From an uncultured Bacteroidales bacterium (GTDB taxonomy: Bacteria; Bacteroidota; Bacteroidia; Bacteroidales; WCHB1-69): a DNA stretch of 64,000 bases. Under the pieces are notes generated by a model, which saw only the letters and a program-made list of their open reading frames with translations, did not search any database and was not told where the DNA came from. Positions 8,668 to 11,292 of this stretch are shown piece by piece. Location: the NCBI GenBank assembly GCA_946409645.1, contig CAMJXE010000001.1, positions 27,710 through 91,709 on the forward strand, read 5' to 3'. Position numbers and translations under genes: made by a program. Position 1 is the first letter of the stretch, and each line of letters begins with the position of its first letter.

Positions 8668-8675
8668 TATCTTTG
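8668..8675 (+). promoter_or_regulatory. -7 box TATCTTTG retained in front of MTase stub 1 / DUF1016 copy 1
   Basis: Exact TAnnTTTG; ATG at 8701. Confidence 0.5.
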
Positions 8676-8700
8676 CGGGCTTGTTTTAAATTAACGGTAA

Positions 8701-8853
8701 ATGGCGGCAAGTCAGAAACATAAGGCAACCGGCACCCCCTTGGTGATCGACCTTTTCGCGGGCATTGGCGGATCCCACGCGGCAAGGCGTGACGTGAATG
8801 CTGTGAAAATGTGGTTTTGTGGGACGAAATACAATGGAAAAAGTGACCTATAA
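8701..8853 (+). pseudogene. 5' remnant of a C5 DNA methyltransferase (50 codons, motif I only)
   Basis: Translates to [25 protein letters not shown].., which is SAM-binding motif I (DLFAGIGG), and then loses MTase similarity. Its TAA overlaps the ATG of the next gene (TAATG). Confidence 0.55.
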
Positions 8854-9926
8854 TGGATTTGACAACATATAACACGGACAATCTGCCACAACATGGCTCA
8901 AACCTGTTGCTTGACTCCTTGCGTGGCCTGATTTCGGCGGCAAGGCAAAAGATGGCCGTATCGGTGAATGCGGAGCTAACGCTCTTGTATTGGCATATAG
9001 GCGGACAAATCAACTCCTTTATACTTCAGGGCGAACGGGCCGAATACGGGAAACAGATTGTTGCGACAATAGCCAGACAGCTGACGGAAGAATTCGGAAC
9101 ATCTTTTGCAGAGAAAAATCTGAGGCGGATGATGCAGTTTGCCGCAGTATATGACAATGAAAAGATTGTCGTACCACTGATACGACAATTGACATGGACA
9201 CATTTTATTGCTCTGATTCCCATAGCGGACACCCTGAAACGATCCTTTTACGAACAGCTTGCCATTGTTGAACATTGGAGTGTGCGTACACTGAGGAACA
9301 AAATAGACAGCCAGTTGTTTGAGCGGACAGCTATCAGCCGAAAACCGGAGGCCACTATAAAACACGATTTGGACTTGTTGCAACAGGAAAACCAGATGAC
9401 CCCCGACCTTGTGTTCAGAGACCCGTATCTGCTCTCTTTCATGGGGCTTCGCGACACCTATTCGGAGAAAGACTTGGAGAACGCCATTGTATCGGAAATG
9501 CAACGTTTTATCGAAGAGCTGGGGTCCGATTTTGCCTTTATGGGACGACAGAAGCGGATAACCATCGACAATGAGGATTATTATATCGATTTGCTTTTTT
9601 ATCACCGCCGTTTGCATTGCCTTGTAGCTATCGACTTGAAAATAGACACGTTCAAAGCCGCTTACAAGGGGCAGATGGAGCTATACCTGCGATGGCTTGA
9701 GAAATACGAGCATGTTGACGGTGAGAATCCGCCCATTGGCCTGATATTGTGTGCAGGCAAAAACGAGGAGCATGTCGAGCTGCTACATTTGGAAGACAGT
9801 AATATACGGGTTGCCGAATACATGACAGTGCTTCCTGACAAAAAGGTTTTGGAACAAAAATTACAAGCGGCCATCGCCATGGCACGGCAGCGTTTTGCCG
9901 CACTGGAACAATATAATAAAGATTGA
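8853..9926 (+). CDS. DUF1016 / YhcG-family PD-(D/E)xK nuclease, copy 1
   Basis: N-terminal YhcG helical domain (NAELTLLYWHIGGQI..) and C-terminal nuclease core YYIDLLFYHRRLHCLVAIDLK. Confidence 0.85.
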   Translation: MDLTTYNTDNLPQHGSNLLLDSLRGLISAARQKMAVSVNAELTLLYWHIGGQINSFILQGERAEYGKQIVATIARQLTEEFGTSFAEKNLRRMMQFAAVYDNEKIVVPLIRQLTWTHFIALIPIADTLKRSFYEQLAIVEHWSVRTLRNKIDSQLFERTAISRKPEATIKHDLDLLQQENQMTPDLVFRDPYLLSFMGLRDTYSEKDLENAIVSEMQRFIEELGSDFAFMGRQKRITIDNEDYYIDLLFYHRRLHCLVAIDLKIDTFKAAYKGQMELYLRWLEKYEHVDGENPPIGLILCAGKNEEHVELLHLEDSNIRVAEYMTVLPDKKVLEQKLQAAIAMARQRFAALEQYNKD

Positions 9927-9928
9927 TT

Positions 9929-10000
9929 ATGCCAAAAAAAAAATACACTTTCATAGACCTTTTTGCCAGTATTGGTGGCTTCCACAGAACAGGGCTTTGA
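9929..10000 (+). pseudogene. second 5' remnant of a C5 DNA methyltransferase (23 codons)
   Basis: [23 protein letters not shown]. This is motif I followed by a premature stop, and it contains an A10 tract (9934..9943). Confidence 0.6.
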
Positions 10001-10035
10001 ATTTTGTGGAATAACACGTAAGATTAAACATAAAG

Positions 10036-11292
10036 ATGATTAAAAGAAATATACAAATAACAACAAACGATGATTCCGCAATCATCACGCATTATCTTCA
10101 AAATGCGAACACCAAATACGCCAAGCCTTTTGAAAAGGATGCATTAAACTTATTATACGGCAAAGAGGATGTTGTGCAAGTCGGAATGGTCAAAGAGCCT
10201 GACCCTCAATACAATTTATTCCCTGAACTATTCTCTGTTCCTTTCCCTGCTCCTAAAAATCCAAAGTTTACATTCATTGATCTGTTTGCAGGCATTGGAG
10301 GTTTTCGTATTGCCATGCAAAATCTCGGTGGAAAATGTGTTTATTCTTCAGAGTGGGATTCACAAGCACAAAAAACCTACTTGGCAAATTACGGGGAGGT
10401 TCCTTTTGGTGATATAACAAAGGAGACAACAAAGCAATACATTCCTGACAATTTCGACGTTCTTTGTGCAGGATTTCCATGCCAGGCTTTCTCTCTTGCT
10501 GGCAAACGCCGTGGTTTTGAAGAAACTCGAGGTACTTTGTTCTTTGATGTGGCTGAAATATTGCGCAGAAAACGCCCCAAAGCATTCTTTTTAGAAAACG
10601 TAAAAGGTTTGGTGATTCATGATAAAGGTAAAACCCTCGACACAATCCTGAACGTGTTGCGAAATGATTTGGATTATTATGTACCCGATCCAGAAATCGT
10701 CAATGCTATGAACTTTGGAGTTCCACAACATAGAGAGAGAATTTATATTGTTGGATTCCGTAAAGACATGAAAGTCAAGAATTTTAAATATCCAGAACCT
10801 ACAGATAAGACCAAACGATTCATCGATATAAGGGAAGACAAAGAAGTCTCTCCCAAGTATTATCTTTCAACTCAATACCAGCAAACATTAATTGAGCACA
10901 AAAAGCGTCACGAGAGCAAGGGCAACGGATTTGGTTATGAAATCATACCAGATGATGGTGTTGCCAATGCCATTGTTGTTGGAGGCATGGGACGCGAACG
11001 AAATATAGTGATAGATCATCGTTTAACGGATTTCACACCAGTCACAAACATTAAAGGTGAGATCAATCATGATGGATGGCGGAGGATGACACCTAGAGAA
11101 TGGGCGAGATTGCAAGGGTTCCCCGACTCGTTTATAATACCCGTTGCTGATGCTTCTGCATATAAGCAATTTGGGAATTCTGTTGCTATTCCTGCCATTC
11201 AGGCTACAGCAGAACAAATCATTAAAAGAATAAAACTTGATAATAATAAATCATATGGGAGAATTAGTAAATCAGCAAATAGCAAAAAATGA
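10036..11292 (+). CDS. DNA (cytosine-5)-methyltransferase
   Basis: Motif I [11 protein letters not shown], motif IV [8 protein letters not shown], motif VI ENVKGL, motif VIII [11 protein letters not shown], motif X GNSVAIPA. The start could instead be ATG 10186. The region is AT-rich. Confidence 0.9.
   Translation: [418 protein letters not shown]

Follow-up and report, generated by a model that had tools for sequence, protein, structure and literature searches.

How do three starts of C5-methyltransferase (C5-MTase) genes come to lie in a row, two of them as short stubs, within a string of defence genes? The question is raised by a stretch of 64,000 nucleotides (nt) from an uncultured Bacteroidales bacterium (contig CAMJXE010000001.1 of assembly GCA_946409645.1), referred to below as the window. 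On its plus strand, the wider gene order reads SNF2/SWIM helicase, stub 1, a first DUF1016 gene (DUF1016-1), stub 2, an intact C5-MTase gene (M), an open reading frame (ORF) of 202 amino acids (aa), a McrB-like gene, a second DUF1016 gene (DUF1016-2) and a McrC-like gene. An earlier inspection of the letters, the sequence-only reading, had placed and read the stubs, DUF1016-1, a run of ten adenines (A10) and M correctly in every case. It had described the two stubs as nested, although they in fact stand in tandem, and had explained them by serial cassette replacement. The explanation favoured here, with moderate confidence, is that the row consists of dead 5' stubs of two C5-MTase families left by block exchange in a defence-island hot spot, stub 2 having arrived within an AT-rich block.

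Both stubs are true remnants of the 5' ends of C5-MTase genes, and the two genes belonged to different families. An N-terminal C5-MTase profile made from outside sequences only was scored on 2163 stop-to-stop pieces of the window. E-values of 1e-20 for the intact M, 9.5e-11 for stub 2 and 2.8e-6 for stub 1 were obtained, and the next-best piece of the window reached 1.8; the relic status proposed by the sequence-only reading is borne out by these scores. A regular expression for motif I had exactly three matches (stub 1, stub 2 and M) in the six frames of the 64-kb window, the chance level being 0.01 matches per composition-preserving shuffle. With the curated libraries, no Pfam match was found for the stubs, and NCBIfam gave E=0.0087 for stub 2 alone. 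Motif I, the F-x-G-x-G loop binding S-adenosylmethionine, is near the N-terminus in both stubs, with its first Gly changed to Ser in stub 2. Motifs IV (PCQ), VI (ENV), VIII and X as well as the target-recognition domain are absent, and the ORFs have no more than 50 and 23 codons. Outside 10036-11292, no frame of the window contained any further MTase motif. Since the stubs are without the catalytic and later motifs, they are relics and not enzymes. The missing 3' halves were searched for elsewhere in the window, including the region just upstream of the vsr gene, and none was found.

Stub 1 (8701..8853, plus strand) is the 5' relic of a GC-rich C5-MTase gene. Its MTase-homologous part extends from 8701 to about 8778 and has a GC content of 0.59; the rest is an unrelated tail with a GC content of 0.44, which is near the DUF1016 value (0.47). 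The order of stub 1, DUF1016-1 and stub 2 is also found in three JGI contigs (L084-86), with another downstream region. Between the window, L084 and L086, stub 1 shows non-synonymous changes only (0 synonymous and 2-5 non-synonymous differences), and it is therefore regarded as a drifting pseudogene. A word-index search with stub 1 returned a single sequence, another stub. In the related island L186, a 109-aa relic (MAACQRHRTNENPTVIDLFAGAGGLSLGLYQAGW...QIGNAIPPLF) stands directly after the 205-aa gene that also flanks the window island, and it is homologous to stub 1 up to GG(S/L). In this mini-MTase (2782-3111 of L186), the last conserved motif (QIGNAIPP) is joined in frame directly behind the early ones, a structure that identifies it as an internal deletion rather than a 3' truncation.

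The L186 relic and stub 1 have a promoter-like upstream region in common (ta.tTTTGc.gg.ttgtttt...cggtaaATGGCGGCA). In the window, a Bacteroidetes-type -7 box, TAtcTTTG, matches the consensus at 8668-8675 on the plus strand, 33 nt before the stub 1 ATG; we take it to function as a promoter on the basis of the Bacteroidetes consensus. The box and the 5' untranslated region are kept upstream of the stub 1 homologues in L186 and L084/L086. Intergenic plus-strand TAnnTTTG boxes occur in the island at 964, 1804, 4567, 5092 and 8668. The last of these is the only one serving 8701-13296, and a promoter scan of the island found no TAnnTTTG box in front of DUF1016-1, stub 2, M, the small ORF, mcrB or mcrC. 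Expression of DUF1016-1 from the stub 1 promoter is plausible because no other intergenic box is available to it. DUF1016-1, possibly together with the whole downstream gene string, is probably driven by the promoter of the dead gene. The sequence-only reading had made the same proposal of an inherited promoter; it remains plausible with 8668 as the sole box available, although the argument comes from a consensus match only. The overlap of the DUF1016-1 ATG with the stop of stub 1, which was also noticed there, is confirmed (TAATG, with a shared A at 8853).

Stub 2 (9929..10000, plus strand) has 23 codons and a damaged motif I (G to S), and its MTase homology reaches about 9985-9997. In 3582 plasmid records, its peptide matches the extreme N-terminus of genes annotated as dcm. 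The comparison of this region with L086 is informative for the question of exchange. The SNF2 helicase gene of L086 is 99.4% identical to that of the window, and L086 is accordingly treated as a sister strain. The window segment 8659-9984 is 98.3% identical to L086; 9985-12251 is without homology there, and homology resumes at 12252 with 91% identity. The segment 9985-12251 is swapped for 606 nt of unrelated sequence in L086, which has no M. Motif I is intact in its stub 2, immediately behind which stands a McrB-like gene that has another N-terminal domain. Cassette exchange at this locus is real, and one of the joins is an in-frame domain border inside mcrB.

The two alleles of stub 2 carry a further signal. 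DUF1016-1 is about 99.5% identical between the window and L086 up to the second codon of stub 2, and the next 48 nt contain 12 differing positions. Compared codon by codon, the stubs differ by 11 synonymous and 2 non-synonymous changes, the synonymous sites being saturated (binomial P=6e-7). From codon 20 onwards they belong to different subfamilies, with GGFH-R-TGL in the window (near the GGFHTAL... type) and GGFHY... in L086. Because a synonymous-biased pattern of this kind arises only under coding selection, the stubs of the window and L086 descend from two diverged alleles that were once functional. The end of the MTase homology in stub 2 is uncertain by a few codons, and identical cut points in the window and L086 are not claimed. 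Two other sources of the clustered differences were considered and rejected. Targeted hypermutation of the diversity-generating retroelement type does not fit, the changes being not adenine-specific and mostly at third codon positions. Gene conversion of the stubs from the neighbouring intact M does not fit either, the motif-I DNA of M being unlike either stub allele.

Stub 2 goes with the DNA that follows it. GC contents are 0.39 for stub 2, 0.26 for the spacer between stub 2 and M (10001..10035, plus strand), 0.39 for M, 0.34 for the small ORF and 0.29 for the McrB N-terminal domain, and the neighbouring DUF1016-1 and McrB AAA+ part have 0.47 and 0.49. Since the composition of 9929-12251 differs from that of DUF1016-1 and the AAA+ part, the segment is considered to be one AT-rich imported block that includes stub 2. 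In L173/L174, M is 97% identical and stands behind GmrSD and HEPN genes; DNA homology to these loci begins exactly at 9929, the stub 2 ATG, and continues at 92% through the stub (MSKIKHTFINLFASVGGSHMARC, then stop), spacer and M. In L165-172, M is 95% identical and stands behind a HATPase_c_3 gene, and the stub, for example that of L167, is decayed by insertions and deletions (MPKIYFHSFFSGIRGHYISQH, then stop), stub and spacer being still alignable. The window spacer aligns with those of L173 and L167, and the Gly-to-Ser change (FAS) and the length of 23 codons are common to the window and L173 stubs. As the unit of stub, spacer and M is found behind unrelated genes, the truncation of stub 2 predates its arrival at the window locus. 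The stubs are of different ages, that of L173 showing many non-synonymous changes and that of L167 insertions and deletions. More distant members of the M family (L175, L178, L180) are without a stub.

The directly observed anatomy, alleles, block borders, homology of the stubs to MTase families and stub recurrence can be accounted for by the following history. Gene blocks between conserved flanks would be exchanged among strains by recombination. The bodies of both MTase genes would have been deleted or replaced, with their 5' ends remaining. Stub 1 may have been cut about 25 codons in, where the DUF1016 cassette now starts, with its promoter box retained. Stub 2 would be the leading edge of the AT-rich block 9929-12251, which consists of the stub, the spacer, M, the small ORF as a putative restriction partner (R'-like) and the McrB N-terminal domain. 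This block would have replaced, or would have been replaced by, the L086-type allele, in which the other stub 2 lies directly before the McrB-like gene. The right-hand join would be in frame, at the border of the N-terminal and AAA+ domains of mcrB. As the mechanism we infer recombination between the conserved flanks and short or micro-homology at the stub start, and the direction of exchange is proposed on the same footing. The persistence of the stubs might be due to the fact that they begin 2-14 nt from the upstream stop, so that more deletion would harm the neighbouring genes.

Serial replacement in place would give another history. The body of the GC-rich MTase gene would have been replaced by a cassette of DUF1016 and a second MTase, and the body of the second MTase would then have been replaced by the AT-rich cassette of M and its restriction partner (M-R). 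Three starts in a row with GC contents falling stepwise (0.59, 0.39 and 0.39) speak for such a series, and the order stub 1, DUF1016 and stub 2 without M in L084-86 could be its intermediate stage. However, drift from the L086 stub does not account for stub 2 of the window, as the saturated synonymous sites and the other subfamily from codon 20 indicate. Furthermore, stub 2 resembles the M block in composition and is found again behind unrelated genes as a unit with spacer and M, the homology starting from its ATG. An in-place series is therefore unlikely. Of the serial cassette replacement proposed by the sequence-only reading, the exchange at the locus itself is retained (9985-12251 versus the 606 nt in L086), and the simple series in place is given up, stub 2 having come with the M block.

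Stubs of the second type are not restricted to these loci. A database word-index search with the L086-type stub gave 14 matches, all of them short ORFs of 30-70 aa. The N-terminal start of the stub, or its variant MPKKKKYTF..., is shared by 12 of the 14, the other two share the core only, and all diverge at different points. Such stubs were found at seven distinct module borders, cut after about 19 to about 46 codons. The upstream and downstream neighbours are DUF1016 and M-R'-McrB in the window, DUF1016 and a McrB-like gene in L084-86, HEPN and M-R' in L173/174, HATPase and M-R.HpaII in L165-172, HEPN and a McrB-like gene of 507 aa in L185, and DUF2326 and MutH-Mrr in L186-188. In L189, at a different chromosomal site, a Type IIG restriction-modification (R-M) system with a 228-aa gene lies upstream and an unrelated gene downstream. 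The stub 2 ATG is 2-14 nt from the upstream stop in every DNA-level case, the decayed copy of L165-172 being outside this measurement. Stub alleles show a DNA identity of 74-88%, and their longest identical runs are 6-24 nt. The contexts of L185, L186 and L189 were found by peptide search, which is biased to well-preserved copies; the unbiased comparison is that of the window with L086. In the window lineage each stub does end shortly after motif I, as had been read from the letters, and elsewhere the stub family is cut at about 19, 26, 39 and 46 codons. Given these varied cut points and the internally deleted 109-aa relative of stub 1 in L186, the break, as far as the sequences tell, is not tied to motif I.

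An exhaustive HMMER search with a longer stub (P0129) returned 1874 proteins with E-values up to 0.001. Among them, P0155 is a complete 376-aa MTase of the stub-2 family that, by reading of its sequence, has PCQ, ENV, QxRxR and GNS motifs. Many cluster representatives of the family (among P0136-P0160) end at various points with unrelated tails. This suggests that the stub-2 MTase family has been inactivated unusually often; some of these may be partial genes at contig ends. No full-length MTase of the stub-2 family was present in any locus analysed. The full-length relatives expected by the sequence-only reading thus exist, as P0155 demonstrates, and none was found at the orthologous position, for which reason we infer the ancestral state.

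The recurrence at borders might mean that stub 2 is a maintained junction element, that is, an MTase 5' segment of about 60 nt which channels block exchange and maybe serves as a portable start context. The seven borders join five upstream and five downstream modules, and the constant distance class of the ATG from the upstream stop (2-14 nt), the return of short ORFs in 14 of 14 word-index matches and the onset of inter-island homology exactly at the ATG agree with such a role. However, alleles 74-88% identical with identical runs of 6-24 nt make a poor substrate for homologous recombination, and it is the peptide that is conserved, not the DNA. Moreover, the cut points vary, the decayed L167 copy is still in place, and the M family also moves without the stub (L175, L178, L180). 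Short targets may be favoured by a word-index search, and full-length relatives did turn up when the search was exhaustive. A maintained junction element is quite unlikely on this evidence. Site-specific cassette machinery was rejected, with no integrase among the scanned island ORFs and no att-like repeats at the block borders.

The A10 homopolymer reported by the sequence-only reading is present at 9934..9943 of the plus strand and comprises CCA (Pro) plus three AAA (Lys) codons. It has ten adenines in the window and in the Logan contigs L001 and L002 and eleven (A11) in L003 (1365-1376), the rest of 8600-10100 being identical; the longer tract may be real slippage or a homopolymer error of one short-read contig. 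In L086, L185, L186 and L189 the tract is broken by AAG codons. The stub 2 ORF stops 36 nt before M, and with A11 it would end 14 nt later, still before M. A phase-variable switch was rejected, since the tract is lineage-specific and sits in a dead 23-codon ORF that ends before M at either length. A search for known structured RNAs on either strand of 8300-10400 found none. That stub 2 is a translated upstream ORF whose leader peptide tunes the downstream gene, with slippage of the A tract as a switch, is highly improbable. In its favour are a peptide conserved with synonymous changes, a distance of 36 nt from the ORF to the M ATG and the single case of A10/A11 variation. Against it, the gene that follows varies (M, McrB-like, MutH and others), a frameshift and decay have affected the L167 stub, the motif-I glycine is missing from the window copy, other alleles have no A tract and no known RNA element is present.

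Several points weigh against block exchange among strains, which we nevertheless prefer. The start codon of the stub is the border in five upstream contexts, which is more regular than random deletion predicts. Synonymous changes are still over-represented among the differences that separate the stub of the window from that of L173 (8 vs 6, P of about 0.002) despite the apparent descent of both from one dead stub. Use of the stub 1 promoter is argued from a consensus match only. Three of the contexts came from a peptide search that favours well-preserved short stubs. Finally, no full-length MTase of the stub-1 or stub-2 type was found at the orthologous position among about 25 readable island loci.

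The intact M (10036..11292, plus strand) has a 77-aa N-terminal extension and matches PF00145 with E=6.6e-101 over model positions 1-324 of 324 and TIGR00675 with 2.8e-93. It is full-length, including motif I, ENV and the C-terminal GNS. M belongs to a widespread Bacteroidales family that is usually paired with R.HpaII, with 8000 relatives of which the top ones are 80-97% identical; in L180-184 the family forms M-R.HpaII-Vsr triads. Homology between M alleles ends at window position 11258, just short of the end of M. The small ORF (11237..11845, plus strand, 202 aa) overlaps the 3' end of M and is a candidate restriction partner (R') with a weak RE_BsaWI match (E=0.0033); no PADLOC match and no relative among solved structures (PDB) was found for it. 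Behind members of the same MTase family stand a 196-aa ORF in L178/179 (L178 6220-6810) and a partial ORF in L173/174. The gene downstream of this family is thus one of two unrelated kinds: in most genomes RE_HpaII (360 aa), in the window and L178 the ORF of 196-202 aa.

The McrB-like AAA+ gene (11842..13296, plus strand; PADLOC PDC-M26A 4.1e-48, McrB PRK11331 2.4e-6) is chimeric. An AT-rich N-terminal domain (11842-12251) is joined to a conserved AAA+ part (12252-13296), with a sharp rise in GC content from 0.29 before the join to 0.49 behind it. From 12252-12254 onwards the sequence is again homologous to L084/85/86 (88-91%), behind N-terminal domains that differ. At least three unrelated McrB N-terminal domains are fused in frame to one conserved AAA+ part (window 11842-12251, L086 7521-8083, L084 1884-2442, L185 from 5165). 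The import of the N-terminal domain together with the M-R pair suggests linked specificity. The McrC-like gene (14511..16835, plus strand) matches Pfam DUF2357 (4.6e-39) and PDDEXK_7 (1.8e-27). A McrBC-like GTP-dependent restriction gene pair, made of the AAA+ gene and the DUF2357/PD-(D/E)XK gene, is therefore present and is split by DUF1016-2.

DUF1016-2 (13311..14501, plus strand; Pfam YhcG_C 7.3e-52) is fitted exactly between the McrB-like gene, 14 nt before it, and the McrC-like gene, 9 nt after it. At 13278, 33 nt upstream of its ATG, the 3' end of mcrB contains a TAgtTTTG box. Inside the gene there is a perfect 18-nt inverted repeat with a 5-nt loop (13672-13712). DUF1016-1 (8853..9926, plus strand) is a DUF1016/YhcG PD-(D/E)XK nuclease gene (Pfam YhcG_C 4.8e-51, DUF1016_N 8.7e-45) and the PADLOC candidate PDC-S02 (1.2e-129). 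The two copies have only short conserved patches in common, for example 9585-9640 and 14178-14233 (79%). DUF1016-1 is 99% identical in L001-3 and L084-86, and several relatives of 75% identity have their own promoter-like regions and unrelated flanks. DUF1016 as an element targeting MTase genes was considered and rejected, as 77 relatives (identity of at most 77%) had unrelated flanks and were without nearby motif-I stubs.

The defence-island hot spot of this Bacteroidales chromosome, from a gut or rumen genome, spans roughly 894-16835. On its left is the conserved 205-aa gene (276..893, plus strand), which has about 90% nt identity to the left-edge gene of the L166/L167 islands, also precedes the island in L186 and matched no Pfam family. 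The right flank consists of TSCPD, Pmp3, NUDIX and aldose-epimerase-vsr genes, and the space between the 205-aa gene and the aldose-epimerase-vsr pair is filled by several different gene sets in related genomes. The aldose-epimerase and vsr genes (24383..25852, plus strand; Pfam Aldose_epim 1.3e-18, Vsr 1.7e-31) show 79% nt identity to the pair that flanks the L166-L168 islands, and the same pair occurs in L186/187. The vsr gene itself (25298-25852) follows SBP_bac_3 and aldose-epimerase genes, and no MTase relic was found beside it in the window. The sequence-only reading had suggested an orphan relic of the GC-rich MTase, and this can no longer be held, vsr being a conserved flank gene in L166-168 and L186/187 with no MTase relic adjoining. 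Judged by its neighbourhood, vsr is a conserved framework gene that fits the living M family, and not a leftover of the GC-rich MTase.

The TSCPD remnant (16836-17082), Pmp3 (about 19321-19471) and NUDIX (19481-19882) are framework genes of the hot spot as well. They are broken up by a membrane-protein ORF of 64% GC (17117-18025) and a Fic gene (18138-19301). NUDIX stands before aldose-epimerase-vsr in the window and after it in L167. An IS4-like insertion sequence at 2624-4137, with a DDE transposase on the minus strand and perfect 22-nt terminal inverted repeats, lies inside the island and is the sole mobile element found in it. Upstream of the helicase gene, a 149-aa ORF contains five tandem coding repeats of 54-60 nt (KDRWG motif, 4684-4967), and three 14-nt tandem repeats (CACAAGTCACAAAT) are located at 5032-5076, just 5' of the SNF2 start. 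The SNF2/SWIM helicase gene (5097-8630, plus strand) comes immediately before stub 1 in the gene order. A C5-MTase as a conserved partner of the SNF2 helicase was rejected, since 0 of the 80 SNF2-anchored loci have a C5-MTase within 10 kb. Between SNF2 and stub 1, the contigs L084/85/86 contain an extra 468-aa gene with no family match (L086 4631-6151), which is absent from the window (8643-8658). In L086 it is bracketed by the short direct repeat AAAAATGAT(A/T)A, which overlaps the promoter-like region.

Three Logan contigs (L001-3) carry the window arrangement at 98.9-100% identity. Its independent assembly in other contigs shows that the arrangement did not arise as an assembly artefact. 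When the SNF2 helicase and the intact M were looked up by exact sequence, no record matched.

R-M cassettes are described as undergoing allelic substitution, and short N-terminal pieces of M genes are on record too (PMC2853133). The window resembles the cassette-like variation of the E. coli immigration control region in having conserved flanks around non-homologous defence genes (PMC2853133). Further likenesses to the allelic substitution loci are the presence of Type II and Type IV systems, the lack of a dedicated recombinase and relics at the joins (PMC2853133). Unlike those loci, the window has a join inside mcrB that swaps the N-terminal domain together with the M-R pair, and the same MTase stub lies at several borders in many islands, of which no description was found for those loci. 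The m5C-MTase fragments of Helicobacter pylori (PMC2853133) are likewise partial M genes with N-terminal motifs, the rearrangement being linked to R-M mobility. In H. pylori the fragment still has motifs I-VIII, and an active enzyme can be restored from it by fusion, whereas the window stubs have motif I only and no 3' partner in 64 kb.

The HpaII-type M-R-Vsr triads are similar to the window in that relatives of M stand directly before RE_HpaII and Vsr, and a vsr gene is present in the island neighbourhood. Unlike in the triads, the window M is followed by the unrelated 202-aa ORF, and vsr is 14 kb away, beside the aldose-epimerase gene. LlaJI/BsuMI-type systems combine one or more C5-MTases with McrB-like and McrC-like restriction subunits. 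The window gene order of MTase, small ORF, McrB-like GTPase and McrC-like nuclease resembles them. It differs in that M and the McrB N-terminal domain are imported while the AAA+ part and McrC are resident, and in that DUF1016 splits McrB and McrC. The recurring pairing of the stub with a following McrB-like gene (L084-86, L185) suggests, by analogy, that the stub-2 MTase may once have served a system of the LlaJI/BsuMI type.

DUF1016 genes inside R-M loci have been described for Type I and Type IIG systems (PMC9881135). Like them, both window copies are wedged tightly between defence genes; unlike them, DUF1016-1 stands between two MTase relics and is without its own consensus promoter box. 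Compact same-strand modules and variable content at a fixed site are also features of integron gene cassettes, from which the window differs by having no integrase or attC-like repeats and by its varying cut points.

The features of the locus amount to cassette turnover of an ordinary and known kind within a defence island, and the recurrence of stub 2 at borders is a modest curiosity. Three misreadings are corrected, namely the in-place series of stubs, vsr as an orphan relic and the A tract as a switch. Should the repeated presence of the stub at borders prove non-random, a simple rule would be indicated for the places at which defence modules come apart and are joined again; a junction element, if true, would correspond to a cassette attachment site that works without a recombinase. 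The rebuilding of a defence island can be followed here in a clean and datable case: the M-R pair was swapped in a single block together with that domain of a McrB-like enzyme which reads DNA. Such a joint swap would be sensible if compatibility has to be kept between a methylase and a nuclease that senses methylation.

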